A stretch of 64,000 nt of DNA, taken from NCBI RefSeq assembly GCF_041886205.1, contig NZ_CP169029.1; one strand, given 5' to 3'. A program made the translations under genes and the position numbers. Source of the DNA: Escherichia coli (GTDB lineage Bacteria; Pseudomonadota; Gammaproteobacteria; Enterobacterales; Enterobacteriaceae). This document shows positions 11,917-39,039 of the stretch, piece after piece (position 1 is the first letter of the stretch; each line of letters starts with the position of its first letter). The notes beneath the pieces were generated by a model. The model did not search any database. It had not been told where the DNA came from and worked only from the letters and a program-made list of their open reading frames with translations.

Positions 11917-12004
11917 GGTGAGGTGTCCGAGTGGCTGAAGGAGCACGCCTGGAAAGTGTGTATACGGCAACGTATCGGGGGTTCGAATCCCCCCCTCACC
12001 GCCA
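11917..12004 (+). tRNA. serX: tRNA-Ser (GGA anticodon, long variable arm)
   Basis: 88-nt sequence GGTGAGGTGTCCGAGTGGCTGAAGGAGCACGCCTGGAAAGTG...GGTTCGAATCCCCCCCTCACCGCCA with acceptor stem, D and T arms, CCA end; marks the island boundary. Confidence 0.9.
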
Positions 12005-12153
12005 GATTACAAGCGCATGTTATTGTTTAACATGCACTTTTTTATTTATCCTTCCAGGCAGTATGCCACCGGGTATGCCATTTGAAATCGGTTTATATGC
12101 CCCACGATCATATCTTATCGGACAATTTCCGATCTTTGAGCATACTGGCAAAG

Positions 12154-12996
12154 CTATACTGCCAGCATGTCAGGATAGTGTTTTGCGATAATATCATTCA
12201 GTCTGTCAACCAGTTCTGGCTTCCTGAACGTGATGTGCGCAGAGCCCTTCTTAAAGTATTTAATAATGAACATCTCATCTTCATAGCATTCTTTTCCCTG
12301 AAGAGACCGGATGTGATCGTCCAGATGAATAGTTATGTTTTCCCTGTTGTCGGGGATCGGTTTGCCGCTGAACAGATGCAGCATTCTTTCTAGGTCGGCA
12401 AGTCTATCTGCCTGTTGCCCGGTGATAAGATGCAATCCCCACCGGTCCCACCTCACCAGATTGTTGACGATAATTTTATTGCCAAATTTACAGGGGCAAT
12501 TGGTTTTGTAATTCCAGCTCAACCCTCTGAAGAGGTTGATCACTCCTCGCTCAAACACTTCATCCTTATTCTGGTGTAGCTGCTCAAACGTACTCAGAAT
12601 ATTCTCTTCACTGATTTCCGGAAAATTATCGTACTCCAGTGACCGGTACCATGTATCACGGGCCTGTGCATCCATTAAGGAAAGCATCCCGGAGCATTGC
12701 ATCAGGTCACGCCAGATTTCGCGATCGAGATTGCGGGTGATAGCTTTCATTGCTGTATCAGGTTTATCCATGAGCCAGCAGCCGCAGCGAAAATCCTGTT
12801 TCATGGCCCAGTCCAGTGCGGTTTTACCGCCAATACTTTCTGTCATTGCTGATATTTCAGTCAGTTGCCGGATAAGTGTGTCGATTTGCAGCAGTGTAGT
12901 CTTTCGCACAGCCAGAATGTGGCGGATACTGGTTGAGCAGATAACGTCCGTATGCCCGTTGACCACTTCCGGACGGGCGATTGTGATGCCTGACAT
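12154..12996 (-). CDS. DUF4942-like protein of CP4-type prophage remnant
   Basis: 280-aa ORF directly downstream of the cbtA-like toxin and YeeW-like gene, the usual position of this family; family assignment from memory, not searched. Confidence 0.55.
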   Translation of the reverse strand: MSGITIARPEVVNGHTDVICSTSIRHILAVRKTTLLQIDTLIRQLTEISAMTESIGGKTALDWAMKQDFRCGCWLMDKPDTAMKAITRNLDREIWRDLMQCSGMLSLMDAQARDTWYRSLEYDNFPEISEENILSTFEQLHQNKDEVFERGVINLFRGLSWNYKTNCPCKFGNKIIVNNLVRWDRWGLHLITGQQADRLADLERMLHLFSGKPIPDNRENITIHLDDHIRSLQGKECYEDEMFIIKYFKKGSAHITFRKPELVDRLNDIIAKHYPDMLAV

Positions 12997-13309
12997 AATC
13001 GGTTTTCCTTTCTGTTTATAAATGAAAACGCCAGCCGTATTCAGGCTGGCGTCGGGGGAATGAAGTGTGGTGAGAAAGATAATGAGTGAAACTCACCGGT
13101 TCAGGTGCTGAAACTGCAGATGGCGCAGAGTTCGGACATCCTGTCGCGCCTGTTCGATACAGGGCAACAGTGCTGCCGAATCCGTTTTATCCTCATCGTT
13201 GTCAAAGATAATTTCCGATTCGCAGTCAATATTGTCCTGCAGCCACGCAATCAGAATATCCAGCGCCGTTTCTGTGGTTAATAATTTCATCCAGTGTCTT
13301 TTGTCCTGA

Positions 13310-13798
13310 TTACCAGTCGAAAGTGGGGAACCCCGGCAGACATTCTGCGCTGGCGTCCAGATGAATGAGACTGACGCCATAACGCCGGGTGAGTGTGACA
13401 ACCAGACGACGGAACGTTTTTGACAGGCCCAGGCGCTTAAGCCGCAGAACCGGGTATGACCACGCATCGGTACGTAACAGATAGCCGCTACCTGTGAAAT
13501 GAATCCATTCTGATTCACCAACGTCACTGGTCTGGTGTGACAGCGAGTACAACCAGGCGTTGTCCGTTTCCGTGATATGTGCGGTACTGCAGCGTATGCC
13601 GGCAAGGGTTGCAAATGGCGGAGGTGTGCAGGTTGACTGTTGGTCGGATTCCTCCACCACACGGAGTGAATAACCGTTTTCAGCGACGTTATTAATCAGT
13701 TCAGTGAGATTAACACCATCGACGTCAACGACAATGCGCCCCATGTTCAGTGCCTGCACGTTAACGCTGTCAGCTTCCAGCGTCAGGGCCAGTTTCAT
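13310..13798 (-). CDS. YeeW-like protein
   Basis: 162-aa ORF starting [36 protein letters not shown], overlaps cbtA stop by 4 bp. Confidence 0.5.
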
Positions 13799-14172
13799 CG
13801 TTTCGCCTCCTGATACTTACCCAGGGTAATGTTATTTACCGTTCGGTAATTGTCGCGGGTCATCAGGCCAGTCGCCCGGCGAGCCCGGAGGATATCGATG
13901 CTGTTTATTAACTGAGAGCGGGTACAGGCACTGAATTCCGGCTGGTCGGTACGCACCAGCGCGTATTTTTCCACGAGAAAATTCACCGCATCACACAGTG
14001 AAATGCCTGCCTCAATATGCTGCTCAATCACACGTTCATCGGCAAACGGTGTGTCATTCAGTGTAAGGCCGTAATGCTGGCCCAGTAGTCGGGAGAGCAG
14101 AGTCTGCCAGATGGTGACGGGAGACGGGCAGCTCGATGCCTCCCGTACGTGTGTATCGGGTAATGTTTTCAT
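13795..14172 (-). CDS. cbtA: Type IV toxin CbtA/YeeV family (cytoskeleton-inhibiting toxin)
   Basis: 125-aa ORF ...[54 protein letters not shown]... matches YeeV/YkfI/YpjF family. Confidence 0.85.
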
Positions 14173-14261
14173 ACTGAAGGTTTTCCTGATATGCAGAGAT
14201 GAAAAATGGAAAAGTGGCGTGGTGAAAGCACCAGGCCGGAGCAGAAGGTTATTCCGGTGGT

Positions 14262-14630
14262 TTACTTTTTCGTTTCGGGCGTCGGATAAACAGCCAGATA
14301 AACGTAACCACCGCTACCGAGAGTGTCAGCTTTGCAGGTCAGACCTTTTGCATACAGCGTGACGGTATGCTGATGGCGGGGATTCAGTTCACCGCTGGTG
14401 AGCATGAGTTCCAGTTGTTTCATCAGCAGCGGAAAGGCCTGGTCCAGGTGGTACGCATCTGCATCGCTGAACAGGCCTCTGATACCGGCGCGGTCGGCAA
14501 GGTAATGCAGGCGGTTACCCTCCTGCACCAGACGTGCCCCGAAACAGGGCGTCACGGTGCAGGGCAGCCCCCACCAGAGGCGGTCGTGATTGTCGTCGGG
14601 AAGTATTGTCCCGGGGAGTGTGTCTGACAC
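14262..14630 (-). CDS. cbeA: Type IV antitoxin CbeA/YeeU family
   Basis: 122-aa [55 protein letters not shown]... matches YeeU/YafW/YfjZ family. Confidence 0.85.
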
Positions 14631-14709
14631 GATAAAATCCTCACAGAAAATCGGTTAAGAATGGTCCGGTGGTGGCGATAATTCTGCTCATCTGAATACC
14701 CTTCCAGAC

Positions 14710-14931
14710 TCAGTTCAGAGTGACGCTCATCAGCCGGACATACGGGCCAAAACTGTCCTTACGACGTTCAGCAAACACGGCCAGCACACCGGGAATATCC
14801 TGCACTTCACGACCGGTATACGCTTCAGTGCTGCCGTGCCAGCGGTATTTGCCGGTACAGAACGGGAAAAGACGGGATGTCGGATGTTGTTGGTGAATAC
14901 GCATGGCTTCACCACGAGTGATAACTTTCAT
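14710..14931 (-). CDS. YeeT-like small protein (DUF987)
   Basis: 73-aa ORF in conserved position upstream of the cbeA/cbtA pair. Confidence 0.65.
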   Translation of the reverse strand: MKVITRGEAMRIHQQHPTSRLFPFCTGKYRWHGSTEAYTGREVQDIPGVLAVFAERRKDSFGPYVRLMSVTLN

Positions 14932-14993
14932 AATGGGATACCTCTGAAGACAGAAGATAAAAGAGAAAACAGGTGTGATGTGGTTGTGACGGG

Positions 14994-15485
14994 TTAAAGC
15001 AGACCATGTTCGGCAAAGGAGAAAACCTGGTTGCCACCGACTATCAGATGGTCCGGCACCCGGATATCCACCAGGCCCAGTGCCTGTACCAGACGTTCGG
15101 TGATAAGCCGGTCTGCCTTACTGGGTGTGACTTCACCGGACGGGTGATTGTGCGCCAGCACCACGGCAGCGGCATTGTGGTACAGGGCGCGTTTAATCAC
15201 TTCCCGGGGATGGACTTCCGTGCGGTTGATGGTGCCGGTGAAGAGGGTTTCACCGGCAATCAGCTGATTCTGGTTATTCAGATACAGCACCCGGAACTCT
15301 TCACGCTCCAGTCCCGCCATGTTCAGAATCAGCCATTCCCGTGCCGCACGGGTGGAGGTGAAGGCCACACCGGGTTCATGAAGATGGCGGTCCAGGGTTT
15401 TCAGGGCCCGCAGAATGAGACTGCGCTCACCGGGCGTCATCGCTCCGGGCAGAAAGGAAAGCTGTTGCATTGTGCTTCTCTCCAT
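14994..15485 (-). CDS. RadC-like JAB-domain protein (YeeS/YfjY/YkfG family)
   Basis: 163-aa ORF with JAMM-like motif VVLAHNHPSGEVTPSKAD. Confidence 0.8.
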   Translation of the reverse strand: MERSTMQQLSFLPGAMTPGERSLILRALKTLDRHLHEPGVAFTSTRAAREWLILNMAGLEREEFRVLYLNNQNQLIAGETLFTGTINRTEVHPREVIKRALYHNAAAVVLAHNHPSGEVTPSKADRLITERLVQALGLVDIRVPDHLIVGGNQVFSFAEHGLL

Positions 15486-15971
15486 TCAGTCGATGATGCG
15501 CATAATGGCGCTGCATTCCGGATGCTGCAGGGCGTAATCCCGCAACCGGTAATAATGGACCGTCATGGCATAACACTCCGTACGACAGGCGTGATGACTG
15601 TACGTCATCAGACAGGCAGCAATGCCGGCGGCTTCCGGGCTCATTTCAGCGCGGTTGCCGTTCATGGCATTGAACAGTACCCATGTTTCGTCATCATCGT
15701 CATCCGGTTCGGGGGCCATAAATGCCCCGCCGTTGTTCAGAGTGTACAGATTCCAGATACCACCGCAGTAGTCTTCGCACAGACGGTCCATCCAGCCGAA
15801 AACACGGGGCTCCAGGGTCACCCACTGTGGAATGAGGCCAAAATGCTGCGGCCAGAAGCTGATGCGCTGTTCATCAGGGACTATGGTGGCAACCAACTGA
15901 GGCTGGTCATTCCCTGATGCAGCGGTTACGGAAACAGAAGATGTGGTGGAATTATGTGAAATGGTTTTCAT
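15486..15971 (-). CDS. Antirestriction protein (KlcA/ArdB-like, YfjX family)
   Basis: 161-aa ORF abutting the radC-like gene; acidic stretch PEPDDDDDETWVLFNAMNG; typical CP4-type module order. Confidence 0.7.
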   Translation of the reverse strand: MKTISHNSTTSSVSVTAASGNDQPQLVATIVPDEQRISFWPQHFGLIPQWVTLEPRVFGWMDRLCEDYCGGIWNLYTLNNGGAFMAPEPDDDDDETWVLFNAMNGNRAEMSPEAAGIAACLMTYSHHACRTECYAMTVHYYRLRDYALQHPECSAIMRIID

Positions 15972-16025
15972 GAAATGACTCCTTAAAGGACAAATAAATG
16001 CGTGGTTTTCAGGGTAATGGCTGAA

Positions 16026-16844
16026 TCAGCGCAGGCTCTCCAGCAGCGTTTCCGCCATCACCCACAATGCGCGGTTGAGCTTAATGTCAGTGTCAATGCT
16101 GTGAATGGCACGGGTATGGATACGTTTTCCTTTAGCGCTGCGACCTGAAATTCCGCCTTTCAGCATATTCTCCTGAATGGTCTGATAAGCACTCCACAGG
16201 TCCTTACCGTAATCCTCCCGGCGTCGTGGCGTCAGAATGTCGGCGGTGGTGACGGGCTGATGTTCGTCACCATAACGGTAAGTCAGTGCCGCCTGTGCCA
16301 GCGCCTGGCGTGCCGGTGGCGGCAGAATCAGCGACTGCATGGCATCACGCTTTTCCTCAATCCGGTCAAACACGCCCACCACCTCGTAAGCCCCTTCAAT
16401 GACTCTGTCCACCACATTTCCCCGGTGCGGAACACGCACTTCCCCCAGAGACTGACCACAGACGCATCCGTTCTGGCAGACGAACCTGAAGTAACCCGGC
16501 AGCATCTGGTAGCTGGAGGTACCGTCATGAGAGTTGAGCAGAATAATTTCAGGGACATGTTCTCCGTTTATCTCTCCGGCCCGCCGCAGACGCAGCATGT
16601 GTTTTGTGTATCCCCGGCGGCCCGGGTCGCGCACACGGGTCTGGCAGGCGAAGAATGGCTGAAAGCCTTCCCGCTGCAGGCTTTCCAGTACGGTGATGGT
16701 GGGGATGTACGTATAGTTCTGGCTTCGGGACGTGTGTTTATCTTCCCCGAAAATCCCCGGCACATAGTGCATCAGTTCTTCGTGTGTCAGCGGACGGTCA
16801 CGGCGTATCTGGTTCGCATAACCAAAACGACTGGCTAGTCGCAT
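16026..16844 (-). CDS. DUF932-family protein (YafZ/YfjQ-like)
   Basis: 272-aa ORF in the conserved island module. Confidence 0.6.
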   Translation of the reverse strand: MRLASRFGYANQIRRDRPLTHEELMHYVPGIFGEDKHTSRSQNYTYIPTITVLESLQREGFQPFFACQTRVRDPGRRGYTKHMLRLRRAGEINGEHVPEIILLNSHDGTSSYQMLPGYFRFVCQNGCVCGQSLGEVRVPHRGNVVDRVIEGAYEVVGVFDRIEEKRDAMQSLILPPPARQALAQAALTYRYGDEHQPVTTADILTPRRREDYGKDLWSAYQTIQENMLKGGISGRSAKGKRIHTRAIHSIDTDIKLNRALWVMAETLLESLR

Positions 16845-16943
16845 AATTTGCTCCTTATCGGTGGTTAAGATTTACTGGTGTAATAAATGAAAAAGCCACG
16901 TCTCCCGGAGAAGACGCGGCCTGATGGGTGAAATGAATGACGT

Positions 16944-17177
16944 TTATTGTCTGAGAAGACCGTCACTGGCGAGCCGCGTATTAAGCACCTTTCCGGCATC
17001 GGGTTCAGAATTCCGGCAGCGCCAGCGTCGCTGACCTTCCGCGTTGCGGATAACCCGACGGAAATGCATTCCCGGGTCATCCTGGATAAACACATTGCGG
17101 TAAGCGGTTATGACAGCAACCGCCTGCCCGTATGAGAAAGATCCTTCAGCCAGGACATACTCTGTGTAACCCGGCAT
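16944..17177 (-). CDS. Small DUF905-like protein (YkfF-like)
   Basis: 77-aa [37 protein letters not shown]...; size and context only. Confidence 0.4.
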
Positions 17178-17255
17178 ATCTGTTTTCTCCTGATAAATAA
17201 AAAGCCTCTGCCACGCGTTGTGACAGAGGCTGAAGCATGAAACTGACTTCAGGGA

Positions 17256-17711
17256 TCAGTTAACGTTTTTTCCGGAAACGGTAATCAGCAGTGGATGGTA
17301 GTCCTGGGGATTGAAAACCGATAACGGCAGACTGACACGATGGCCGTTACTTTCTTCAGTTGCTTTAATGATTTCGGTTGTGGCGACATTTTCCACGCAC
17401 TCCGTTTCCAGAAATGCGTCTGTGGTTCGCGTGGCATTACTGTCACCAAAAGCTTCCGTTTCCATTTTTCTGGTCACCAGCGTCTGACCATATTTGTCTT
17501 TGAGTTGCAGAGTGATGGTGAGGGGGCCAAATCCTTCATCGTTTCCGCCATTATCCAGCCGGAACTGGTAAGCACAAATATTTCCCGGGAGCCATATCGT
17601 ATCTGTATTGCGTATACTGATGTAACGTTGATCCTGTGCCCGGAGTGGGGCAGACCACGTTAACCCCAGAATGAAGGCGGTAATCATGCAGGTTTTGAAC
17701 AGGTGAATCAT
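17256..17711 (-). CDS. Hypothetical secreted protein
   Basis: 151-aa ORF with N-terminal signal peptide (MIHLFKTCMITAFILGLTWSAPLRA). Confidence 0.4.
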   Translation of the reverse strand: MIHLFKTCMITAFILGLTWSAPLRAQDQRYISIRNTDTIWLPGNICAYQFRLDNGGNDEGFGPLTITLQLKDKYGQTLVTRKMETEAFGDSNATRTTDAFLETECVENVATTEIIKATEESNGHRVSLPLSVFNPQDYHPLLITVSGKNVN

Positions 17712-17786
17712 GGTATTTACCTCTCTGAGTCATGACGATGACACTGACAAATCAGGTGATAAAGCGTAAAAGGCGCAGAATAGCCG

Positions 17787-19508
17787 TTATGCCGGTAACT
17801 CCGGGGGTAATGCTTCTTCCAGTCGGTTAACCATATTGCCGAGATGGGATGCATCATATTCCATGACGGGGCGTTGCCTGATGATACTGACCACCAGTGG
17901 TTTGATTAACATATTGGTCGCGGCCCGTTGTTGTATACCGGCGGCGAAAATGATCTCCAGAGCATTCTGATCGATAACACGGGCCAGATTCTCGTTCAGA
18001 TTTTCAATCTCATGTCCGGTCAGCAGGAAACTGCCGGCAAGCCATGTCACCTGCTCCTGAATCATTGCCAGAATTTTGACGCGATCTTCTTCAACCAGCG
18101 CTCCGGCAATTTTTCCTGATACAGCGGAGGCAATCATTCCCCCCAGAACACCGCCAACCACACGCCCTGTCAGTGCACCAAATGGTCCCAGTGGACTGAA
18201 CAGTATCCCGCCCGCCACTGACCCGACAGCTCCACCTGCCACACCGGAAGATGCCACGGCAAGATTCCTGATGAACTGCGCACCGGAGATCCGTCCCCGC
18301 AACATTTTGATCATGTCAGGGCCGGTTGTGACAGCTACCAGTGCCAGAGATGTCACCAGCGTACCCTTCATTACTTTGTTCAGGGCACTGATATTTCCTG
18401 CACCGGTCCCCTTCTGAAGAGCCAGTCGGACAGTCGGGCTGGCAGTCGAAAAATCAATGTGCTTCAGCATACCCTGAACAACACTGAGCCGGTGGAGTTG
18501 CTGGGTTGTGACGTAGACAGCCAGTGTGCGGGTGAAGGTTTTTCCTGCTTGGACAGCAGCTGTCTGCAGGGCAGCATCGCGATCGCCGGTGCTGAGCCAG
18601 AAGACCGATGCCGTCAGGGCAAAACTGATCCCTCCGGCCGCCAGACTGACAACCGAACCCTCGGCAATATCATAAGTGACCGATTCGATGGTCCCGAACC
18701 GGGTGATATTACGGGCCTGAGTATAAGTCAGATGTCCCCGACGAATCAGCCGGGACGCTTCTGCGGGATCGGTTACACCGGGTACTTTACCTTCGCGGAT
18801 CTTATTCCTCATGGTTTCAACAGCGCCGGCATACTGATCACGGGGGACTTCCAGTTGCATGGGGCCATTATTTCCCATGTAACGATACTGTCCGTTTTGT
18901 CCGTCGAATGCCGCACCGACGCTACGGGCTGCAGTTGAACAATATTTCGTCTGGATTTCTGTTCCGCTGACCAGTCTGTCTGCTCCATTTCTGGCATTAT
19001 TATCACCGAGGATCCGTGCGTTTTTCAGACGGACTCTGTCGACAATATGGTTTCCCCGTTCAGCGGCAAACCCATGTCCCTGCCCTCCGGAAGCAAACAT
19101 TTTCTCATTTGTACTCCAGGTTTCCGGCAGTTTCATGAGAATCAGACCATTCGCCGTTGCATCGGAAATAAAGCTGTTGTAAGGGCGTTCATAAATTTCC
19201 TGACACAGTGTTTCTGTTTCGCGACAAAGAGAGGAGCAGTACCATTCCGGATCCGGCTTATGATTTTCCGGGGCATGATGTACTTCTGTCAGCCCGCAGG
19301 AGGCACAGATACGAAGCTCATCCACGTGATGGAATGATACAAAACGGCGACCTTCTGAAAAGGGATACCAGTCACCGCCGTCCAGGCAACGATCGAGAAA
19401 ATCGTCATTCGCTTCCGGTGATAAATTCAGGCGGTTCCGGAAGAGCGTTTTCAGTTCATCAGGTGTGAATGACAGGTTCTCTTTCAACTGTTCGTTAAAC
19501 CCTGCCAT
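17787..19508 (-). CDS. YeeR-like inner membrane protein
   Basis: 573-aa ORF with Cys-rich N-terminal segment and Gly/Ala-rich hydrophobic segments; position downstream of flu as yeeR in CP4-44. Confidence 0.5.
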   Translation of the reverse strand: MAGFNEQLKENLSFTPDELKTLFRNRLNLSPEANDDFLDRCLDGGDWYPFSEGRRFVSFHHVDELRICASCGLTEVHHAPENHKPDPEWYCSSLCRETETLCQEIYERPYNSFISDATANGLILMKLPETWSTNEKMFASGGQGHGFAAERGNHIVDRVRLKNARILGDNNARNGADRLVSGTEIQTKYCSTAARSVGAAFDGQNGQYRYMGNNGPMQLEVPRDQYAGAVETMRNKIREGKVPGVTDPAEASRLIRRGHLTYTQARNITRFGTIESVTYDIAEGSVVSLAAGGISFALTASVFWLSTGDRDAALQTAAVQAGKTFTRTLAVYVTTQQLHRLSVVQGMLKHIDFSTASPTVRLALQKGTGAGNISALNKVMKGTLVTSLALVAVTTGPDMIKMLRGRISGAQFIRNLAVASSGVAGGAVGSVAGGILFSPLGPFGALTGRVVGGVLGGMIASAVSGKIAGALVEEDRVKILAMIQEQVTWLAGSFLLTGHEIENLNENLARVIDQNALEIIFAAGIQQRAATNMLIKPLVVSIIRQRPVMEYDASHLGNMVNRLEEALPPELPA

Positions 19509-19520
19509 GTTTCTTTCATA

Positions 19521-20309
19521 CTAGGCATTGTTCAGTAACCAGTTTCCGTCTGCCAGTTCAAATTCCCTCAGCTCTCCCCGGGAAATCCGTTGAGAAATGA
19601 GCGTCAGCCAGATGCGCTCCGTCAGTGAGTCAGGAAGGCTGTAATCGTTTTGCAAACTGGTCAGCCACGATTTACTGTTGAGCACCGGTTGTTCTTCCAG
19701 TGTCTGGCTGATGGCACAGGTCAGTTTTTTCAGCGCCTGGATCTGGCTGGCTGCCCATAGCAGCGTCACTAATGCAGCCAGCCAGTACAACAACCCGCCC
19801 CACCACATCAGTGACGGTGAAATATCGTACTGTAACGCGATCAATGGTGCGCATGCAGAACACGCCATAAGGAAAAAGGCAGTATAAAAACAGCAGTAAT
19901 ACCCGTTAATTTCCTTGCTGATATCTTCTGGTGTGATCCCGTTCTGCTGAATGTTTTTGATCTGCAGGGGAACAGCCAGCAGACCACCGGCGAGAGCGGT
20001 GGTCAGAATAAATTTCACAGAGTCAAAGGTGTGAGCCTCCAGCGCGATATGTTTACCATCAAGTCCCCACATGAAGCTGATGATCATTCCGGCAATCGTC
20101 AGAAATACGCCTGCCAGCCAGCGAACATGGAACAACCGGGTTATGCGTTCGGTGATATAGCCAGCCAGTAAGGCCGGGCCGAACAGACACAGCAATATGA
20201 GCCCTGCCAGCGCAGAAGCCGTGCTGATTAATGCTCTGAACAAAAGGCGAAGAATGGCAAATCCTGCGATCAGCAGGATCAGCGCGCCGACTATCTGTAA
20301 CATAGTCAC
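19521..20309 (-). CDS. Hypothetical polytopic inner membrane protein
   Basis: 262-aa ORF with several hydrophobic helices; immediately downstream of flu. Confidence 0.45.
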   Translation of the reverse strand: MTMLQIVGALILLIAGFAILRLLFRALISTASALAGLILLCLFGPALLAGYITERITRLFHVRWLAGVFLTIAGMIISFMWGLDGKHIALEAHTFDSVKFILTTALAGGLLAVPLQIKNIQQNGITPEDISKEINGYYCCFYTAFFLMACSACAPLIALQYDISPSLMWWGGLLYWLAALVTLLWAASQIQALKKLTCAISQTLEEQPVLNSKSWLTSLQNDYSLPDSLTERIWLTLISQRISRGELREFELADGNWLLNNA

Positions 20310-20423: not shown

Positions 20424-23270
20424 TCAGAAGGTCACATTCAGTGTGGCCTGACCGTTATACCCTTCAGCGCTGCTGCCGCTGACGCTGTGGGCATAACCGG
20501 CCTGAACGCCCAGGGTGATATTTTCCCGGACACGGGCTTCCAGTCCGGCCTGCAGGTCCAGTGATGTGCCATTCTGTGAGGGAGAGAACGTCATCCCGCT
20601 GCCTGCAGTGGAAGTCCCCACACGCATATCTCCCCGGGAGCTGAAGGTGCGGATAACAGAAGGCTGTACCCACCAGTTCACCGGTAATTCACTCACACTG
20701 TGTTTTGCACTGTCACGCAGGGGGGCACGGGATGAGGTGCCTTCGCCAAAGGTCATATCGTTGTGGCTGCCCAGACGGAAACCGGCACGCACATGTTGTG
20801 CACTGCCATGCCCGAACTTCACATAACCGGCGTTGTCCTTACCGTCATCCAGGGAAAGTCCCTGCCAGGTATACTGTAGTTGTGGCTCCAGCATCAGGTT
20901 GTCAGTGATACTGAAGGGCAGACCGGTTTCCAGTGAACCCAGCCAGCCCCAACCCCGGGCGCGGAAGTCGTTATTGTCCGTTGACGCTTTCATGCTGTGG
21001 CGGGTTCCCAGGGCCACAATGTCAGCCCACAGTCCGGAGGCGTTGTGTATCAGATTCAGGTATCCGCCCAGGCTGCCGGCATCATCCCGGACCGTGCCGG
21101 CGCGGGAGCCGTCATCATCCTTAACATCAACGGAAGAATGGCCTGCAGCACCATACACCCCTGTCGTCAGAGACATACCGGCAACCTCTGTTCTGAGCAG
21201 GTCACCCTCCAGACGGACGAAGCCATAGCTGCCGCTGCTTTCCGGCGTGGCTCCACGGGCAATACCGCCGTTGTTATCGTGACCGAGATGACCGCCCTGA
21301 ATGCTGAGACGGACGCTGTTATTTTCACCGTTTACACCGGTCTGATGGCTGCGGGAGCCTGCCAGAATCCGGTCATAGTCCATTGCCTGTGTCAGCATGG
21401 ATGTATACAGGGGGACTTCAGCACGATAAGCATTTTCACTGCGCAGGTACCAGTCTTCATCGCTGTCACGGTTCAGGGTGTAGTTAAAGGCGCCGGCCTG
21501 AAGCGGGCGACTCAGGGCAAACGCACCTTCTTCTGTGGTGGCGCCATTCTGTGCATCCACAACCCGGATACCCTGTCCGGAGGTTGCCACCCCGAGGTTA
21601 CTGTTTCCGACATTTGTAAACGCAAGCCAGGTTTTGCCGGTTGCCTGACCACCATTAATCACCAGCTGGTCAGAGGTATTGCTGCCATCAAGGCGAACAC
21701 GCATATTGATGGTGCCACCCTGACCGGTGAGGTTACTGGTGGTCAGTTTATGGAACGTTACCGGGGAGTCGCCTTTTGCAACAGCACGGCTCAGCGCGGC
21801 ATCCGGTGTCGTCTGATTATCAAAGCGAATCTCCCCTGCGTTAACAATATCGCCGGTACTGACCACATCACCATTCAGTACCATGCTGGCACCTTTACTG
21901 AGCTGTGTTCTGCCACTCAGATTTCCCCCGGCAGCCAGCGTCAGTGTTCCACGATGTCCGACAGTGGTGTTGCCAGCCTGTCCTCCGGCATTAACCGTAA
22001 AGCTGCCGCCATTTTCCAGCAGCAGGCCGCTGGCCTGACCGGAGATACCATCAATACTGAACTTACCGCTGGCATTGGTCCCCTCAACAGTGGCACCACT
22101 GTCTGCTATCAGGGCACCACCGGATGTCATGGTGACATCTGTTGCCTTACCACCGGCAGACACTGCCAGGATACCGCCGTCATCCACCAGGGTATTCTGT
22201 GCTGAATGGCTCTCCAGTACATCCAGACGACCGCCGGATTCCAGAACAACACCGTCAGCCTTACCGTTTTCCACAGTGAAATTGCCCAGACGGTTGCTGC
22301 CGGTGACGGTTGCCGCCGTACTGGTGACCAGTGCGCCTCCCTGCTTCAGGGTGACATTCGTGGCTGTACCACCGGCGTTCACCTGCAGTTTGCCTTTCTG
22401 GTTAACGGTGGTGAAATCCGCCAGACCACCTTCCTTGACAATCTGCCAGCCGTCACTGTTTACAACCGTGTCAGAGGCTGTGCCTCCGTTGTGCACATAC
22501 TGGTAACCGCCATTCAGTGTGGTATCCAGCGCATGCCCGTGTACCGTCTGGTCGCCGCCGGCATAAACCACAGTGGTATTTGCTGTTCCTTCAACAGCCA
22601 CAATCTGACGACCATTTTTATTGATGGTGGTACGTACGGCATTTCCGCGAACAAACTGCCCGGTATCACCATTTTCTGCATCTGGTCCCCCTTCCGCGCC
22701 GGTATTCACAACCGTGTCGGTTGCCATTGCGCCGGATTTGACGGCCTGCCAGCCCTTCTCATTAATGACGGTACCCGTTGCAATCCCGCCTTCATGTACC
22801 CACTGCTCACCGCCGTTCAGAGTGGTATTCACTGCCTGCCCCTGAAGGCTCTGTCCGCCTCCGGCACTGATAACCGTGTCTGAAACGCTTCCTCCGGCAT
22901 TCACTCTCTGAAGACCACCACCGGTGACAGTAGTGTTGTTGGCGATACCGCCATTTTGTATCCATTGCCCGCCGGTATTGGCCTCGTTATCCGGCCCATA
23001 CTCCAGACCGGTACTGATGGTCATTCCGTTGGCCGTACCGAGAACAATCTGGTTGTCATGATTTGTCAGTGTTCCGCCGCTCACGGTTTCTCCCGCCTGT
23101 ACAACCGTGTCAGCAGCCAGTGCCGGGACTGATGTGACAGCAGCAAGAGACAGCGCAATCGCCACACCGGCGCGTTTTCCCCGTGAGCGGGCCAGTTCGG
23201 AGGCCACCACCAGGGTACCCGTAATGTGATTCCATACCAGCCTGTAGCTGGTGTTCAGATGTCGTTTCAT
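20424..23270 (-). CDS. flu: Antigen 43 self-associating autotransporter adhesin
   Basis: Start taken at MKRHLNTSYRLVWNHITGTLVVASELARSRGKRAGVAIALSLAAVTSVPALA (extended autotransporter signal); passenger repeats and C-terminal beta-barrel ending ...NVTF; overlapping plus-strand ORFs rejected. Confidence 0.9.
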   Translation of the reverse strand: MKRHLNTSYRLVWNHITGTLVVASELARSRGKRAGVAIALSLAAVTSVPALAADTVVQAGETVSGGTLTNHDNQIVLGTANGMTISTGLEYGPDNEANTGGQWIQNGGIANNTTVTGGGLQRVNAGGSVSDTVISAGGGQSLQGQAVNTTLNGGEQWVHEGGIATGTVINEKGWQAVKSGAMATDTVVNTGAEGGPDAENGDTGQFVRGNAVRTTINKNGRQIVAVEGTANTTVVYAGGDQTVHGHALDTTLNGGYQYVHNGGTASDTVVNSDGWQIVKEGGLADFTTVNQKGKLQVNAGGTATNVTLKQGGALVTSTAATVTGSNRLGNFTVENGKADGVVLESGGRLDVLESHSAQNTLVDDGGILAVSAGGKATDVTMTSGGALIADSGATVEGTNASGKFSIDGISGQASGLLLENGGSFTVNAGGQAGNTTVGHRGTLTLAAGGNLSGRTQLSKGASMVLNGDVVSTGDIVNAGEIRFDNQTTPDAALSRAVAKGDSPVTFHKLTTSNLTGQGGTINMRVRLDGSNTSDQLVINGGQATGKTWLAFTNVGNSNLGVATSGQGIRVVDAQNGATTEEGAFALSRPLQAGAFNYTLNRDSDEDWYLRSENAYRAEVPLYTSMLTQAMDYDRILAGSRSHQTGVNGENNSVRLSIQGGHLGHDNNGGIARGATPESSGSYGFVRLEGDLLRTEVAGMSLTTGVYGAAGHSSVDVKDDDGSRAGTVRDDAGSLGGYLNLIHNASGLWADIVALGTRHSMKASTDNNDFRARGWGWLGSLETGLPFSITDNLMLEPQLQYTWQGLSLDDGKDNAGYVKFGHGSAQHVRAGFRLGSHNDMTFGEGTSSRAPLRDSAKHSVSELPVNWWVQPSVIRTFSSRGDMRVGTSTAGSGMTFSPSQNGTSLDLQAGLEARVRENITLGVQAGYAHSVSGSSAEGYNGQATLNVTF

Positions 23271-23479
23271 CAGCTTTTCCTTACAGAGGGTGAATAAAAA
23301 AGCCGGTACCCACAAATGTGGATACCGGCAGGTACAAAACAGCATGGTCAGATAAAGTGGTTTTTCCCGGGCATAAATGCTTCCCCTCTCTCATCCGCCA
23401 GAGAAGTATCAGTCCGTTGTGTGCAATTCCGTTCTGCATGATGAAGAGATTCAGCTGCCTTTTCGCAGACCATTAACCA

Positions 23480-23530
23480 CTATAAACGATCGATAGTAAC
23501 GATCAATACCTGTTTTATCGATCGTTTTAT
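23480..23530 (-). promoter_or_regulatory. flu phase-variation switch (three GATC sites; expected Dam/OxyR target)
   Basis: GATC at 23488, 23501 and 23520 in ...AACGATCGATAGTAACGATCAATACCTGTTTTATCGATCGTTTTATTC..., about 220-250 bp upstream of the flu start. Confidence 0.6.
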
Positions 23531-23642: not shown

Positions 23643-24554
23643 TCAGAAGAAAATCCAGTTCCATACAGCGCGGGCAACAGAGACCACCGTGTCACGGACG
23701 GCACGCAGAACCGTACGGGCAACAGAGGCAACACAGACGCTCTCCGCCGTGTCAAATATCCGGTCCACCGCACCGGTAAACTGTTCACGGGCCTGAGCGC
23801 GGACAGATTCCGTGCGCAGCTCGTCCTGCAGGCGGGTCATCAGGGGACTGGCGGCATGGTCGGGAAGCGCTGTCATTAGCGCACTGACCAGCGTATCCAG
23901 CTCCCAGCCGGTGCGGGCCGATACGGCAACAACCGGATGTACGGGCCGGAACAGACGGAATACCGCATCTGTTTTTTCGCGAATGTTCTGTGCCTGTGCG
24001 GGAGAAGGCTGAATGCCGGCCATATCCCATTCATGGCAGGGCTCCGTTTTGTCGGCCTGCGTCACCACAAACAGCACCTGCTGATGTCCCCGGTGCAGGA
24101 TGTGTCGCCAGAAATACTCATCCACAGACAGGGCACGGTCATCGGCTTTAATCAGCCACAGTACCAGGTCAAGTTCAGGCAGAATGTCACGGTACAGGGC
24201 CTCATACTCTGCATCCCTGTCCCGGCTCTCGCCCACCCCGGGCAGGTCAGTGATAACCATGCTGTGACCGTGGCCACTCAGACGGAAGCGCCGTACTTCC
24301 CGGGTGCCGGCGTGAACATCACTGACCGGGGTGACCTCCCCCTGAAACAGTGCATTACAGAGTGAGGATTTACCGGCCCCGCTTTTACCCATAATGCCAA
24401 TCACGGGTTCGTGACGGGTGAGTTTGCGCAGATGTTCCAGGATGTGACGGGAAAGTGAGTAAGGCAGGGAGGAGAGCGGTTTTTCAATTGCCTCAATGGC
24501 ATCAGACGGATTCATACATGTATTCCCGGTGAAAAAAGACAAAACCCCGCGCAC
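23643..24554 (-). CDS. YeeP/YkfA/YfjP-family GTP-binding protein
   Basis: 303-aa ORF with P-loop GIMGKSGAGKSSLCNALF and DLPG motif. Confidence 0.75.
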   Translation of the reverse strand: MRGVLSFFTGNTCMNPSDAIEAIEKPLSSLPYSLSRHILEHLRKLTRHEPVIGIMGKSGAGKSSLCNALFQGEVTPVSDVHAGTREVRRFRLSGHGHSMVITDLPGVGESRDRDAEYEALYRDILPELDLVLWLIKADDRALSVDEYFWRHILHRGHQQVLFVVTQADKTEPCHEWDMAGIQPSPAQAQNIREKTDAVFRLFRPVHPVVAVSARTGWELDTLVSALMTALPDHAASPLMTRLQDELRTESVRAQAREQFTGAVDRIFDTAESVCVASVARTVLRAVRDTVVSVARAVWNWIFF

Positions 24555-24870: not shown

Positions 24871-25389
24871 ATGACGATTCTTGAAGAAATGGAAGCAGAA
24901 GCATGGCATATCCTAACAACCATCTATACGTATCAGCGGTTGATGGAAGGCCTTACTAATAGCAGTACAAGATATGAGCTTGCCAATCAGTTGGTAGCCC
25001 TCAATGCATTGTTGGAAATGTTGGTGATCCGTTTAGCGCGTCTTGCGGATAAAAGGAAAGATGTGAGATCTGTATCAATGTTTTTGAAACGCGGCTCGTA
25101 TTCTGCTTCACCAGAGGCTGTGAAATTGGCAGCTGAAAAGTTCCTTGCACTCACAGAACCAGTATTAAAGATTAGGCATGAGCAGATTGCACATATGAAG
25201 CCCGGCACACTCAGTAGCTTCGAGCCTCGAGAACTTCCAAATGAAGCTCTGAGAGCAACTGAGGCTCTAATCGATCTCATTGACATTGCCAGAGGTCACC
25301 CTCAGTCTTACACATACCGAGTTGGCTCACAGGAGCCTGCCATTAATTTGAGAGCTTCAGTAGAGACTAGCGAACTAGTTAAAATCTAA
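24871..25389 (+). CDS. Hypothetical protein, 172 aa, possible HEPN-like R-x5-H motif
   Basis: ORF in AT-rich DNA; contains KIRHEQIAHMK; no family recognised; convergent with the 459-aa gene. Confidence 0.5.
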   Translation: MTILEEMEAEAWHILTTIYTYQRLMEGLTNSSTRYELANQLVALNALLEMLVIRLARLADKRKDVRSVSMFLKRGSYSASPEAVKLAAEKFLALTEPVLKIRHEQIAHMKPGTLSSFEPRELPNEALRATEALIDLIDIARGHPQSYTYRVGSQEPAINLRASVETSELVKI

Positions 25390-25525: not shown

Positions 25526-26905
25526 TCAGTCATAAAATTTATTTTTGCCTTTTGACGTCATGAGAAGGAAATATGAAGGGTGACTCTTTATTTCTGAAGA
25601 GTGGCTTGTTATACTAAAAACCTCTTTTAGAATCGTAAAGGCTCCTGTAGCCAACGACACTGGATTTGGTGCCCCAATAAAACCTATCAATGATGGCGCA
25701 ATGTTAAGAAAAAGTTCTTTATTACTTTTCCGCTTATAGGTCTGTATTTTTTGCTCAATATCGGTCAATCCTTCATCCCATATGCGCTCGACAAAATGCT
25801 GATTTATCAGCTGCCTCTTATATGGGTCACTTTCTGCTTCTATGTCATACGCAGCTTCACGTAGCACAGAGCGGAAGGCATTAAAACTCGATTCGTAGTC
25901 AGTTCTAATTTTGTAGAGTTCACTTGGAGTAAGCCCCTCTAGAAATGGAACGTCAATAGAGAGTTTAACCCTCTGAACTTCATTCCTTTGATCCAGTTTA
26001 CGAAGAATTTCTCCATGAAATGGGCAATATGCGCCCAGGGACGCTCTGCATGAATGCGCTTGGTTAAGATCAGTAATAAGGTTTTTATAATGAAAGAGAA
26101 CTGTACGATTTTTTGCTCCCTGCACCCACCGTTCATAACTTTTTTTTCCGCTATGCTTTCCCATGACAATTTCCATAGACATGGTACCATCATCATTATC
26201 AATGGCATTATTTATATGTTGATACATATATCCATTTGTATACGAGCTTTCGCAGCCTTTAATTTTCAACATAATTTCATTCGTTAAAACATTTCTGTTT
26301 AACAACCGAATTTTATTTGTGTTGCCCAGACGTTCTATATTCTGTACGGATAGTCTACTTTCATACAGACGGGCAATATTAGGGGGGAGATATCGAAATA
26401 GGAAATTAGTATCAGAGTTATCTTCTAAAATTCCATTAGCTCTCTCCGAATCTTTAATAGAGGATTCTCTTCGTACAAAAACGATAAACTCTCCACGGAT
26501 AAGATCAAAGTTTTCTTTAGCAAACCTGATAAACCTAGCAATTTCCTTCCTGAGATGTTCAACCTTCTCTTTGCTATCGCTTTCAATAAATTTTTCAACT
26601 ACGTTTTCTGATAGATTTACCCTGTATCGTAGGCTCAATGAATATAGAACGTCATCAAGAATGACTCTGTCCATTGAAAACAAACCACTCTTATACCTTT
26701 CAATATTACGATTCCCCGCCATGTAAACATTCAGCCGGGACTCCTGTACAGAATTTGTTTGTTCGATAATGAATGAATCTATCCTTTTATTATATTCAGC
26801 TAATTCAACTAGCAATTCGTTCAATCCGATATTTTCATATTCCTGTTCTAAAAGTCGATCAACCCAAAAAAGGCTTTCTGTGAGCGCATAGAGGTTGTTG
26901 TACAT
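25526..26905 (-). CDS. Hypothetical protein, 459 aa, no recognisable domain
   Basis: Long uninterrupted ORF in visibly AT-rich DNA, Lys/Glu/Asn-rich, no TM segments; sits between the GTPase and the type I RM operon. Confidence 0.6.
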   Translation of the reverse strand: MYNNLYALTESLFWVDRLLEQEYENIGLNELLVELAEYNKRIDSFIIEQTNSVQESRLNVYMAGNRNIERYKSGLFSMDRVILDDVLYSLSLRYRVNLSENVVEKFIESDSKEKVEHLRKEIARFIRFAKENFDLIRGEFIVFVRRESSIKDSERANGILEDNSDTNFLFRYLPPNIARLYESRLSVQNIERLGNTNKIRLLNRNVLTNEIMLKIKGCESSYTNGYMYQHINNAIDNDDGTMSMEIVMGKHSGKKSYERWVQGAKNRTVLFHYKNLITDLNQAHSCRASLGAYCPFHGEILRKLDQRNEVQRVKLSIDVPFLEGLTPSELYKIRTDYESSFNAFRSVLREAAYDIEAESDPYKRQLINQHFVERIWDEGLTDIEQKIQTYKRKSNKELFLNIAPSLIGFIGAPNPVSLATGAFTILKEVFSITSHSSEIKSHPSYFLLMTSKGKNKFYD

Positions 26906-28133: not shown

Positions 28134-30572
28134 ATGGCTATCAAAAAAACCGAACTCTATTCTTCCCTGTGGGCAAGCTGCGACGAACTGCGTGGCGGGA
28201 TGGACGCCAGCCAGTACAAAGACTATGTACTGACCCTGCTGTTTATGAAGTACGTTTCCGATAAGTATAAAGGCGATCCTTACGGGATGATCGTGATACC
28301 CAAAGGAGCCAGCTTTGACGATATGGTTGCGCTGAAAAATGACAAAGAGATCGGCGATAAAATCAACAAAATCATCCACAAGCTGGCGGAAGAGAACGGC
28401 CTGAAGGGCGTCATCGACGAAGCCGACTTTAACGACGAAGATAAACTCGGCAAAGGCAAGGAAATGATTGACCGCCTGAGCAAGCTTGTCGGTATCTTTG
28501 AAGGGTTAGATCTCTCCAGCAACCGGGTCGAAGGCGACGATCTGCTGGGCGATGCCTATGAATATCTGATGCGTCACTTCGCAACCGAATCCGGCAAGAG
28601 TAAAGGACAGTTTTACACTCCGGCGGAGGTGTCACGTATTCTGGCAAAGGTGATTGGTATTACTCCCGATACGCCGCGAGATGCAACGGTTTATGACCCA
28701 ACCTGTGGCTCTGGTTCGCTGCTGTTGAAAGTGAATGATGAAGCCCGGCGCGGACTGTCGATTTTCGGCCAAGAGATGGATAACGCTACCAGTGCGCTGG
28801 CGCGGATGAACATGATTCTGCATAACAATGCCACCGCGAAAATCTGGCAGGGCAATACGCTGAGTGATCCGCAGTGGAAAGAGGCGAACGGCAAACTGAA
28901 AGCCTTCGATTTTGCCGTGGCGAACCCGCCTTTTTCCAATAAAAACTGGACCAACGGGCTGACGCCGAAAAAAGATCCGTTTGAACGCTTCGGCTGGGGT
29001 ATTCCGCCGGAAAAAAACGGCGATTATGCTTTTTTGTTGCATATCATTAAAAGCCTGAAAAGTACCGGCAAAGGCGCGGTGATCCTGCCCCACGGCGTAC
29101 TGTTTCGCGGTAACGCCGAAGCGAATATCCGTGAAAACCTAATCAAGCAGGGCTATATCAAAGGCGTTATTGGTTTGCCAGCCAACCTGTTTTACGGCAC
29201 CGGCATCCCGGCGTGCATCATTGTGATTGATAAAGAGCACGCCCACAGCCGCAAAGGCATTTTTATGATCGACGCCAGTCGGGGCTTTATCAAAGATGGC
29301 AACAAGAACCGCCTGCGTAGCCAAGATATTCACCGTATTGTGGACGTGTTCAACCATCAGCGAACGGTGCCAGGCTACAGCCGGATGGTGCCCTCCAGCG
29401 AGATCGCCGGGAATGATTACAACCTGAATATTCCTCGTTATATCGAGAGTGGAGAGCCGGAAGATTTGCACGATCTGACCGCGCACTTACAGGGCGGTAT
29501 TCCAGTGCGCGATGTAGATGCTTTGAAGGATTACTGGCGGGTATTCCCTGCCCTGCGTAATGTGCTGTTTGCTGACGACCACCCCGGTTACTGCCGGGCG
29601 CAAGTGGACGCGCAGCAGGTGAAACCGACCATTCTGGCTCATCAGGAGTTTAAGGATTTTGCCACCCGCAGCCTGCTACCGTTTAAGTCGTGGGTAAAAG
29701 AGGCAGGTCTGGAAGAGATCCGCAAAGGAGATAAACCCAAAGCGCTAATCCACGATATCAGCGAAATGCTATTGGCGCAGTACGCCAACAGTGAGTTGCT
29801 GAACAAATACAGCGTGTACCAGATCCTGATGGATTACTGGGCTGATGTCATGCAGGACGATGTGTATGTGATTATGCAGGATGGCTGGAAAGCCGCCGCG
29901 CAAATCCGCGAGCTTCAGCCGGTGAAAGGCAAAGATGGCAAAAACATCTGGAAAGAAACGCACGATTTCGAGTTTACCAAACGGCGCTACAAGGCCGATG
30001 TGCTGCCCCGTTCGCTGGTGGAAATTCGCTGTTTCCCGGAACTGCTGGATGCGCTGAACCGCGCGCAGGAGCGCAGTGAAGAAGCCAGTCGTCAGCTAGT
30101 GGAATTCATCGAGGAGCAGGCAGGGGAAGAGGATCTGCTGGCTGAGGTGAAAAACGATAAAGATAAGGTGACGCAAAAGCTGGTGAATGCCCGTCTGGCA
30201 CAGTTGAAGCCCCCCCCTGCCGACCCGGATGAGCTGGCAGTGCTGAACCGCTGTCTGGCGCTGATTAAGGCCGAGGCCAGTGCGAAAAAAGCGCTGAAAG
30301 CCGCACAGGAAGCGTTGGATCGAGCGGTATTTAAACATTATCCCACGCTGGATGAAGCAGCGATTAAAACGCTGGTAGTGCAGGATAAGTGGCTGGCAAC
30401 GTTGCAGGCAGGGATCAAAGCGGAGATAGAGCGTATTACCCAGCAACTGGCGTCGCGCGTAAAGGAGCTGGAAGAGCGTTATGCTGAACCGTTGCCAGCA
30501 CTTGAAGCCGCCGTTGAGGCGTTGAGCGAGAAAGTGGCCGGGCATTTGCGGGCGATGGGGCTGGAGTGGTGA
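28134..30572 (+). CDS. hsdM: Type I restriction-modification system methyltransferase subunit M with long C-terminal extension
   Basis: 812 aa; HsdM N-terminal domain (MAIKKTELYSSLWASCDELRGGMD), AdoMet motif VYDPTCGSGSLL, catalytic NPPF (FDFAVANPPFSNKNW); about 300-aa Ala/Glu/Lys-rich helical tail. Confidence 0.9.
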   Translation: MAIKKTELYSSLWASCDELRGGMDASQYKDYVLTLLFMKYVSDKYKGDPYGMIVIPKGASFDDMVALKNDKEIGDKINKIIHKLAEENGLKGVIDEADFNDEDKLGKGKEMIDRLSKLVGIFEGLDLSSNRVEGDDLLGDAYEYLMRHFATESGKSKGQFYTPAEVSRILAKVIGITPDTPRDATVYDPTCGSGSLLLKVNDEARRGLSIFGQEMDNATSALARMNMILHNNATAKIWQGNTLSDPQWKEANGKLKAFDFAVANPPFSNKNWTNGLTPKKDPFERFGWGIPPEKNGDYAFLLHIIKSLKSTGKGAVILPHGVLFRGNAEANIRENLIKQGYIKGVIGLPANLFYGTGIPACIIVIDKEHAHSRKGIFMIDASRGFIKDGNKNRLRSQDIHRIVDVFNHQRTVPGYSRMVPSSEIAGNDYNLNIPRYIESGEPEDLHDLTAHLQGGIPVRDVDALKDYWRVFPALRNVLFADDHPGYCRAQVDAQQVKPTILAHQEFKDFATRSLLPFKSWVKEAGLEEIRKGDKPKALIHDISEMLLAQYANSELLNKYSVYQILMDYWADVMQDDVYVIMQDGWKAAAQIRELQPVKGKDGKNIWKETHDFEFTKRRYKADVLPRSLVEIRCFPELLDALNRAQERSEEASRQLVEFIEEQAGEEDLLAEVKNDKDKVTQKLVNARLAQLKPPPADPDELAVLNRCLALIKAEASAKKALKAAQEALDRAVFKHYPTLDEAAIKTLVVQDKWLATLQAGIKAEIERITQQLASRVKELEERYAEPLPALEAAVEALSEKVAGHLRAMGLEW

Positions 30573-31921: not shown

Positions 31922-31933
31922 AAGGGAAAGCAC

Positions 31934-32590
31934 ATGGCTTATGATTACAGCGCCAGCCTCAACCCGCAAAAAGCTCTGATCTGGCGTATCGTCCATCGGG
32001 ACAATATCCCGTGGATTCTGGATAACGGGCTGCACTGCGGCAACAGTCTGGTGCAGGCGGAAAACTGGATCAATATCGGCAACCCGGAGCTGATCGGCAA
32101 GCGTGCCGGGCATCCGGTACCTGTCGGAACGGGCGGGACACTGCATGACTATGTGCCGTTTTATTTTACCCCCTTCTCGCCAATGCTGATGAACATCCAC
32201 AGCGGGCGCGGCGGCATTAAGCAACGCCCCAATGAGGAGATCGTTATTCTGGTCAGCAACTTGCGAAACGTGGCAGCACACGACGTACCCTTCGTGTTTA
32301 CCGACAGCCATGCTTACTATAACTGGACCAACTACTACACCAGTCTGGATAGTCTGGACCAGATCGACTGGCCCATTTTGCAGGCACGGGACTTTCGCCG
32401 CGATCCAGACGATCCGGCTAAATTTGAACGCTATCAGGCAGAGGCGCTAATCTGGCAACACTGCCCGATCTCTCTGCTGGATGGGATAATTTGTTACAGC
32501 GAAGAGGTCAGGTTACAATTAGAACAATGGCTGTTTCAGCGTAATCTAACAATGTCCGTTCACACACGGGCTGGATGGTACTTCTCATGA
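31934..32590 (+). CDS. darT: DarT-like ssDNA ADP-ribosyltransferase toxin (DUF4433)
   Basis: 218 aa; motifs [30 protein letters not shown] and QAEALIW align by eye with DarT family; RBS GAAGGGA upstream; 16-bp overlap with darG. Confidence 0.85.
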
Positions 32591-33654: not shown

Positions 33655-33672
33655 GGGTTTAAGGAGCGCCTT

Positions 33673-39038: not shown

Positions 39039-39039
39039 T
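39013..39039. repeat. Hairpin at junction of the two toxin/immunity modules
   Basis: AATCCCAAC-TAAAAGG-GTTGGGATT between the stop of the 147-aa gene and the VENN fragment. Confidence 0.4.

Follow-up and report, generated by a model that had tools for sequence, protein, structure and literature searches.

Known relatives of the block

The closest described relatives of the locus studied here are the conserved gene rows with a toxin-antitoxin pair that are found in the CP4-type islands of Escherichia coli K-12. The locus itself lies in a stretch of 64,000 nucleotides of E. coli DNA (contig NZ_CP169029.1, assembly GCF_041886205.1), referred to as the window in the following, in which an original prediction made from the sequence letters had placed a CP4-type accessory module at 13310-17177. 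In K-12, rows of this kind are known from CP4-44 (yeeS-yeeT-cbeA-cbtA-yeeW), CP4-6 (yafZ-ykfF-yafX-ykfG-ykfH-yafW-ykfI, at thrW) and CP4-57 (lfgA(yfjX)-lfgB(yfjY)-ypjJ-yfjZ-ypjF). CbtA/CbeA is the founding pair of the type IV toxin-antitoxin systems. K-12 CbtA inhibits cell division via the H6/H7 loop of FtsZ, an activity that is abolished by the exchange F65S, and it inhibits elongation via the flat face of MreB, which is abolished by R15C (PMC5624674). Residue F65 is required for the FtsZ interaction in CbtA, YkfI and YpjF, while the exchange C15R is without effect in YpjF or YkfI (PMC5624674). The pairs YkfI/YafW and YpjF/YfjZ behave like CbtA/CbeA, that is, the toxins are toxic and are neutralised (PMC5371832). 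Surveys have reported many CbtA copies per strain, with DUF5983 as a constant downstream neighbor (PMC10790755). Other genes of these rows have also been studied. The ArdB protein of strain CFT073 as well as YafX and YfjX have been assayed for activity against type I restriction, which, according to the title of that report, exists in vivo but not in vitro (PMC2836571). The RadC-like protein YfjY/LfgB was reported to act as a protease in the degradation of the antitoxin MqsA and to share a transcript with yfjX, ypjJ, yfjZ, and ypjF (PMC10846083).

Compared to these systems, the block in the window is most similar to that of CP4-44, its closest relative in K-12. The gene order is the same, the overlap between the cbtA stop and the yeeW start is found in both, and the identities reach 99 % for YeeS, 97 % for YeeT, 95 % for CbeA, and 90 % for CbtA, against 58-81 % for the CP4-6 and CP4-57 proteins when the three paralogous sets were aligned. 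However, the CP4-44 copy lacks ArdB, DUF932, DUF905, DUF957, and DUF4942, all of which are present in the window. Moreover, K-12 YeeW (64 aa) is truncated to the N-terminal domain, whereas the DUF5983 protein of the window has the full 162 aa, and the block is located at serX instead of the CP4-44 site. The CP4-6 and CP4-57 copies share the architecture of the window at protein identities of 46-81 %, but without DUF5983, DUF957, and DUF4942 and with shorter toxins and antitoxins of 105-113 aa. CP4-6 also has the same layout, with the tRNA gene on the plus strand and a minus-strand module reading towards its 3' end; intF is located at the far end of that island. We also considered that the orientation of the block might be abnormal, for example due to an inversion, but rejected this because K-12 CP4-6 and the serX island of ZYB62, another bovine strain (see below), share this layout.

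A complete terminal block next to serX

Ten co-oriented and intact genes form an uninterrupted row on the minus strand of the window at 12154-17177, as seen from the listing of open reading frames (ORFs) at 11-20 kb combined with Pfam. Their order is DUF905, DUF932, ArdB-type antirestriction, RadC/JAB, DUF987 (YeeT), CbeA, CbtA, DUF5983 (YeeW), DUF957-like, and DUF4942. Nine of the ten products match Pfam models essentially from end to end, the exception being the 65-aa DUF957-like ORF. The match of the block to known families is far beyond chance, since the Pfam E-values of its genes range from 1e-18 to 1e-70 and the stretch 12000-17800 has matches in thousands of genomes. Neither frameshifts nor internal stops were found in the ten ORFs when we inspected the ORF listing, the Pfam matches, and the alignments to the K-12 and C11 proteins. 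The products are 97-100 % identical to proteins of the bovine E. coli strain C11 annotated by the Prokaryotic Genome Annotation Pipeline (PGAP), and the DNA identity of the stretch 12000-17800 to this strain is 99.4 %. For nine of the ORFs, a divergent allele is present in ZYB62, likewise at serX. Relative to these alleles, the ratios of nonsynonymous to synonymous substitution rates (dN/dS) range from 0.02 to 0.55, showing that all nine are under purifying selection. Most of the starts have a Shine-Dalgarno sequence in front of them, a weak one in the case of the 65-aa ORF.

The block is located at the serX-proximal end of an island of more than 52 kb that runs beyond the end of the window. 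The tRNA-Ser(GGA) gene at 11917-12004 on the plus strand was detected by both ARAGORN and the Rfam tRNA model. It can be identified as serX because ghrA, ycdX, ycdY, ycdZ, and csgDEFG adjoin it on the other side, a context that is the same in C11 and ZYB62. The block starts 150 nt past serX and reads towards it, and the insertion is at the 3' end of the tRNA gene, as is typical for a CP4-type island. In ZYB62, a tyrosine recombinase is encoded at the far end of the serX island beside ycdU, ∼70 kb away. We consider it highly probable (roughly 0.88) that the window contains an intact copy of the conserved terminal block of CP4-type islands with a type IV toxin-antitoxin core, positioned at the serX-proximal end. 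As such, the block is of an already known kind: it is the conserved terminal module of CP4-type E. coli islands, ordinary and already described.

The order antirestriction, radC-like, yeeT, cbeA, cbtA, yeeW, which the original prediction had called intact, was borne out by the ORF listing and the full-length Pfam matches, and the coverage of the Pfam profiles agrees with its statement that the gene lengths fit the families. Calling this a CP4-type accessory module was fair, because the tRNA-bounded island end is exactly as in K-12 CP4-6. The inventory of 13310-17177 was correct for the genes named but left DUF932 and DUF905 in the same range unnamed. Likewise, these limits do enclose genes of the block but not its full extent, since it continues with the DUF957-like ORF and DUF4942 up to serX.

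A tblastn search revealed no second copy of the block within the window. When the block proteins were scanned against NCBIfam, RadC alone was recognised. An Rfam scan of the whole window gave no match inside the block; the only matches were tRNA, the IsrC/IS102 RNA upstream of Ag43, and ES056 near csgD. Several long ORFs overlap the genes described here, three in antisense orientation (15006-15917, 16260-16838, and 12536-13021) and one on the same strand in the frame of DUF957 (13093-13662). They are without family match and were rejected as spurious. The first of them, a 303-aa ORF on the plus strand that crosses the ArdB and RadC genes, is most likely a codon-bias by-product of the sense genes.

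The CbtA/CbeA pair

The toxin gene cbtA (13795-14172, minus strand, as for all genes of the block) encodes a protein of 125 aa that matches PF06755 over its full length (1-112/112, E 1.8e-61), with 205.5 bits compared to a cut-off of 25. Residue F65 is retained. The antitoxin gene cbeA (14262-14630) is located directly upstream on the same strand, separated by a spacer of 89 nt. It has a GTG start, and its product of 122 aa matches PF06154 (2-100/101, 177.7 bits, E 7.9e-53) as well as the solved structure of YeeU (PDB 2H28, E 4e-78). A cytoskeleton-bundling function of CbeA appears both in the K-12 annotation and in the name of the Pfam family. The pair had been predicted to be undisrupted. 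This was confirmed by the alignment to K-12, in which frameshifts and stops were looked for and none was found.

Based on the homology to K-12, CbtA would bind to FtsZ at its H6/H7 loop, for which F65 is the determinant, and thereby block cell division; it may also block elongation via MreB. CbeA would counteract the toxin not through binding to CbtA but through an effect on FtsZ and MreB filaments, which it would bundle and stabilise, a mode of action established for K-12 CbeA only. By analogy, toxicity of CbtA, with cells turning lemon-shaped or filamentous, and its neutralisation by CbeA would be expected for this allele as well. A role of the module in island stabilisation or stress response, which may apply here, agrees with the published work on the K-12 paralogues (PMC5371832; PMC10846083), but it is not the sole reading of the block.

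Antirestriction, RadC-like, and other upstream genes

The antirestriction gene (15486-15971) encodes a protein of 161 aa that matches PF03230 completely (1-92/92). Along residues 1-161, it matches the structure of ArdB from pathogenicity island II of E. coli CFT073 (PDB 2WJ9, E 1.4e-100), a full-length likeness, and it also matches KlcA (PDB 2KMG, E 8e-21). The protein is therefore a predicted inhibitor of type I restriction, a function assigned here from sequence. At the same time, the island of the window encodes its own type I restriction-modification system (28134-36768, see below), so that both this system and an ArdB inhibitor of type I restriction are present on the same island.

The RadC-like gene at 14994-15485 encodes a JAB/JAMM protein of 163 aa that matches PF04002 (2-121/121, 152 bits) and PDB 2QLC (E 6e-26). 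Besides its near identity to YeeS (see above), it is 73 % identical to LfgB/YfjY. The JAMM motif H-x-H-x7-S-x2-D is intact and reads HNHPSGEVTPSKAD in the translation, making the product a predicted JAMM metalloprotease. A second ATG at 15470 is preceded by GGAGAGA and gives a protein of 158 aa, which is the length annotated by PGAP in C11. Hence, 15470 is likely the true start. We also searched for the MqsA palindrome ACCT-N2-4-AGGT, but did not find it near the block; the sole instance in the window is at 49395.

DUF987 (14710-14931), the YeeT-like protein of 73 aa, matches PF06174 over its whole length (1-65/65). At the upstream end of the block, DUF932 (16026-16844, 272 aa) matches PF06067 at 1-227/227 and is 75 % identical to K-12 YafZ. 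DUF905 (16944-17177, 77 aa) matches PF06006 (2-68/70, E 9.5e-18) and is 46 % identical to K-12 YkfF.

DUF5983, the DUF957-like ORF, and DUF4942

The YeeW-like ORF downstream of cbtA (13310-13798) indeed has the 162 aa originally given for it and represents a full-length DUF5983 protein, with matches to both the N-domain (1-56/56) and the C-domain (3-90/90). The cbtA stop overlaps its start as ATGA, and DUF5983 is translationally coupled to cbtA. Compared to the ZYB62 allele, its dN/dS is 0.18. The family is small: among 1.84 billion proteins, 225 representatives were found at E <=0.001, many of which are fragments. An AlphaFold2 model based on 40 sequences is confident, with a mean predicted local distance difference test (pLDDT) score of 84, and consists of two domains connected by a disordered linker at residues 50-59.

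The next ORF, of 65 aa (13093-13290), is identical to WP_000772024.1 of C11. It starts 19 nt past the DUF5983 stop in the +1 frame, and this frame is open back to 13662. The dN/dS relative to the ZYB62 allele is 0.21. No match to this ORF was found in the current Pfam, though PGAP labels it DUF957, and it is 40 % identical (E 2e-10) to a DUF957 protein from the leading region of a Citrobacter plasmid. According to a 2026 preprint, the AntiFam entry ANF00264 always adjoins DUF5983 beside cbtA or is fused to it, and a programmed frameshift is proposed there (10.64898/2026.06.09.728211). The 65-aa ORF may be a candidate for the ANF00264 sequence of that preprint.

The last gene of the block encodes a DUF4942 protein of 280 aa (12154-12996) matching PF13708 from end to end (1-190/190, E 1.7e-70), with a dN/dS of 0.11 compared to the ZYB62 allele. 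A comparison with the N6-methylase of the Citrobacter leading region revealed no similarity, and only chance-level matches were obtained among the sequences of the PDB.

Transcription

Strong hairpins followed by U-runs were found only after IrmA (the gene upstream of DUF905, see below), DUF905, and the 65-aa ORF, with fold z-scores of -4.2, -3.8, and -3.0, respectively. The terminator-like hairpin between DUF905 and DUF932 (16893-16922, minus strand) has 13 pairs, the one between DUF957 and DUF4942 (13027-13053, minus strand) has 10 pairs. The spacers internal to the block are unstructured. Because terminator-like hairpins are located only before DUF932 and after DUF957, the genes from DUF932 to DUF957 would form one transcription unit.

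Points against the assignment and alternative explanations

Several observations weigh against the interpretation of the block as an intact CP4-type terminal module with a functional toxin-antitoxin core. A consensus scan for a σ70-like promoter on the minus strand inside the block found none, which leaves the lack of internal terminators as the only basis for the operon structure. Neither an integrase nor the 3' repeat of serX was found within the window. For this reason, the type of the island is judged from related genomes, and the island must extend past position 64000. DUF987, DUF5983, DUF957, DUF932, DUF905, and DUF4942 are uncharacterised families. Between the toxin itself and K-12 CbtA, 12 of 124 positions are different, most of them within the first 20 residues. 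One of these differences affects residue 15, which is Cys in the window and Arg in K-12 CbtA. Because R15C abolishes the MreB interaction of K-12 CbtA, dual targeting of FtsZ and MreB is not assured for the window CbtA. We considered Cys15 as a special feature, but downgraded this view, since Cys15 is also present in YkfI, YpjF, and the serX allele of ZYB62; R15 is not conserved across the CbtA family. Given this distribution and the lack of effect of C15R in YpjF and YkfI, we regard Cys15 as an allelic state that is common and leaves MreB targeting uncertain, and neither as a defect nor as a reason for excluding the protein from the family.

The gene content of the block also has relatives on plasmids, and these suggest a different emphasis. 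Genes for anti-defence functions, methyltransferases, and toxin-antitoxin systems are enriched in the leading regions of plasmids, as are uncharacterised genes (PMC11541004). In the IncF, IncI/K, and MOBP leading regions, we found homologues of DUF932, DUF905, ArdB, DUF5983, DUF957, and DUF4942, co-oriented towards the side of the transfer origin. Protein searches of the plasmid collection gave DUF932 homologues (∼62 % identity, full length) for at least 5000 plasmids (89 % conjugative) and DUF4942 homologues for 4866 plasmids (82 % conjugative); DUF5983 homologues were found in 207 plasmids and CbtA in only 66. On the IncF plasmid, DUF932 has an SLT gene and traM as neighbors; hok, psiB, a ParB-like gene, DUF905, and ssb come next. 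The Citrobacter MOBP plasmid carries mobA/mobC, DUF932, DUF5983, a hypothetical gene, a helix-turn-helix gene, DUF957, an antirestriction gene, a methylase gene, hok, and psiA/psiB, while DUF4942 adjoins mobC/nikA on the IncI/K plasmid. On all three plasmids, the genes read towards the relaxase/oriT side, just as the block reads towards the island end. Furthermore, CbeA, YfjZ, and YfjX are translocated via the type IV secretion system of F (PMC11288057). The block could therefore be mainly an establishment and anti-defence cassette of the leading-region type that conjugative and mobilizable plasmids either passed on to the island or have in common with it, and in which CbtA/CbeA is an embedded passenger. 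This explanation, which is compatible with the toxin-antitoxin reading, is a tentative one. Its more specific form, in which the CP4-type terminal block would be to the island what the leading region is to a plasmid, with early-acting genes (ArdB, DUF932, DUF905, DUF5983, DUF957, and DUF4942) at the island end and CbtA/CbeA captured inside, seems doubtful to us. According to this model, the DUF4942-side end of the island would adjoin the attachment site after excision, and transfer would begin there. But single-gene homology shows neither that the island is transferred nor that this end enters the recipient first. Moreover, we saw neither a relaxase gene nor an oriT or mob gene in the window, which also lacks ssb, psiB, and hok, unlike the plasmid leading regions. 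The opposite end of the island, to which the block would be joined upon excision, lies outside the window. The comparison comprises three inspected plasmid contexts and plasmid searches with DUF932, DUF4942, DUF5983, and CbtA; the RadC-DUF987-CbeA-CbtA core was not seen in these leading regions, and CbtA is rare on plasmids. At the DNA level, the block is almost wholly chromosomal, with only 7 of 14795 matching places on plasmids and nearly all others on chromosomes. We did not find a statement interpreting the CP4-type block as a cassette of the leading-region type in the literature searched.

Two further explanations concern the functional state of the block and of its toxin-antitoxin pair. 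In K-12 CP4-44, several genes of the block are missing and YeeW is truncated (see above), and the YeeR-like gene next to the block in the window has a nonsense mutation (see below). This could mean that the block is likewise a decaying cryptic remnant with non-functional genes. But its ten full-length ORFs are free of frameshifts and stops, dN/dS is <1 in all nine ORFs with a ZYB62 allele, and most starts have a Shine-Dalgarno sequence. A remnant of this kind is hence very hard to reconcile with the data and extremely improbable. Many toxin-antitoxin pairs are known to defend against phages, and the island of the window also harbors a type I restriction-modification system with embedded darTG. 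Hence, CbtA/CbeA, with or without DUF5983, could act in phage defence by abortive infection instead of serving addiction or the stress response. But none of the ten block proteins matches any PADLOC model, and no description of phage defence by the CbtA/CbeA family was found in the literature searched, so that we regard this function as improbable. An intact terminal block of a CP4-type island with a type IV toxin-antitoxin core remains the interpretation that we prefer.

Distribution, allelic variation, and significance

We determined the frequency of the block in 5426 complete E. coli genomes, based on the 5.8-kb stretch 12000-17800, which comprises the block and IrmA. In 3269 of these genomes, the stretch is present to an extent of at least 80 %. 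Matches of any extent were obtained in 5029 genomes, which have a median of three matching places each. A comparison with the serX allele of ZYB62 revealed uneven divergence along the block: CbeA and DUF5983 are only 88 % and 89 % identical to the window, respectively, whereas DUF932 is 99.6 % identical. In addition, the ZYB62 block contains an extra small ORF after DUF932 and lacks DUF905. This pattern indicates that islands have recombined with each other within the block.

Taken alone, the block matters little, since the majority of E. coli genomes harbor it, frequently as multiple copies, and since studies of its central genes are available from K-12 and CFT073. But the module is complete in the window, unlike the truncated version of the K-12 reference, which makes this copy a better template for DUF5983, DUF957, and DUF4942. 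Its CbtA is a natural example of the R15C state, by which the targeting of FtsZ is separated from that of MreB in K-12 CbtA. Finally, the gene content shared with plasmid leading regions leads to a concrete idea of the role of uncharacterised genes. If the leading-region explanation were true, the 'cryptic prophage' ends that are so widespread in E. coli would be signs of elements mobilised by conjugation, and a testable function could be assigned to several DUF families.

Other features of the island

Upstream of the block, the island carries in turn IrmA, a YeeR-like gene, Ag43 with the IsrC RNA, and a YeeP-like GTPase. The gene of the IrmA family (interleukin receptor mimic) at 17256-17711 on the minus strand is located between the YeeR-like gene and DUF905. 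In ZYB62, this position is occupied by patatin, RdcB-like, and dynamin-family genes instead, suggesting a variable slot. The YeeR-like gene (17787-20309, minus strand) corresponds to an ORF of 838 aa in C11 that is split into 262 aa and 573 aa in the window by a single TGG-to-TAG change at 19521-19523. It is probably a pseudogene, or else requires amber suppression. An autotransporter of the Ag43/Cah type is encoded at 20424-23345 on the minus strand, with the small RNA IsrC (Rfam IS102) just upstream at 23289-23525 on the same strand. Together with the YeeP-like GTPase gene at 23643-24554, these genes are arranged as in K-12 CP4-44.

The ORF at 24871-25389 on the plus strand (172 aa) gave a weak HEPN/AbiU2 match of 23.5 bits, below the Pfam cut-off of 26.8. 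The adjoining ORF at 25526-26905 on the minus strand (459 aa) is without family match, and both are located in a low-GC patch. These two ORFs could be a defence gene pair. They are followed by the type I restriction-modification operon at 28134-37484 on the plus strand, which consists of hsdM, hsdS, and hsdR, with darT/darG inserted between hsdS and hsdR, and then a gene for a YgjP-like metallopeptidase. The region 37500-51000 contains fragments of the insertion sequences IS66, IS3, and IS110 as well as a uhpC-like gene of the major facilitator superfamily with low GC. The remainder of the window includes a cluster for myo-inositol catabolism (54054-64000, minus strand) with iolB, iolE, iolG, and an ABC transporter, which is 100 % identical to that of the bovine strains ZYB39 and ZYB62.

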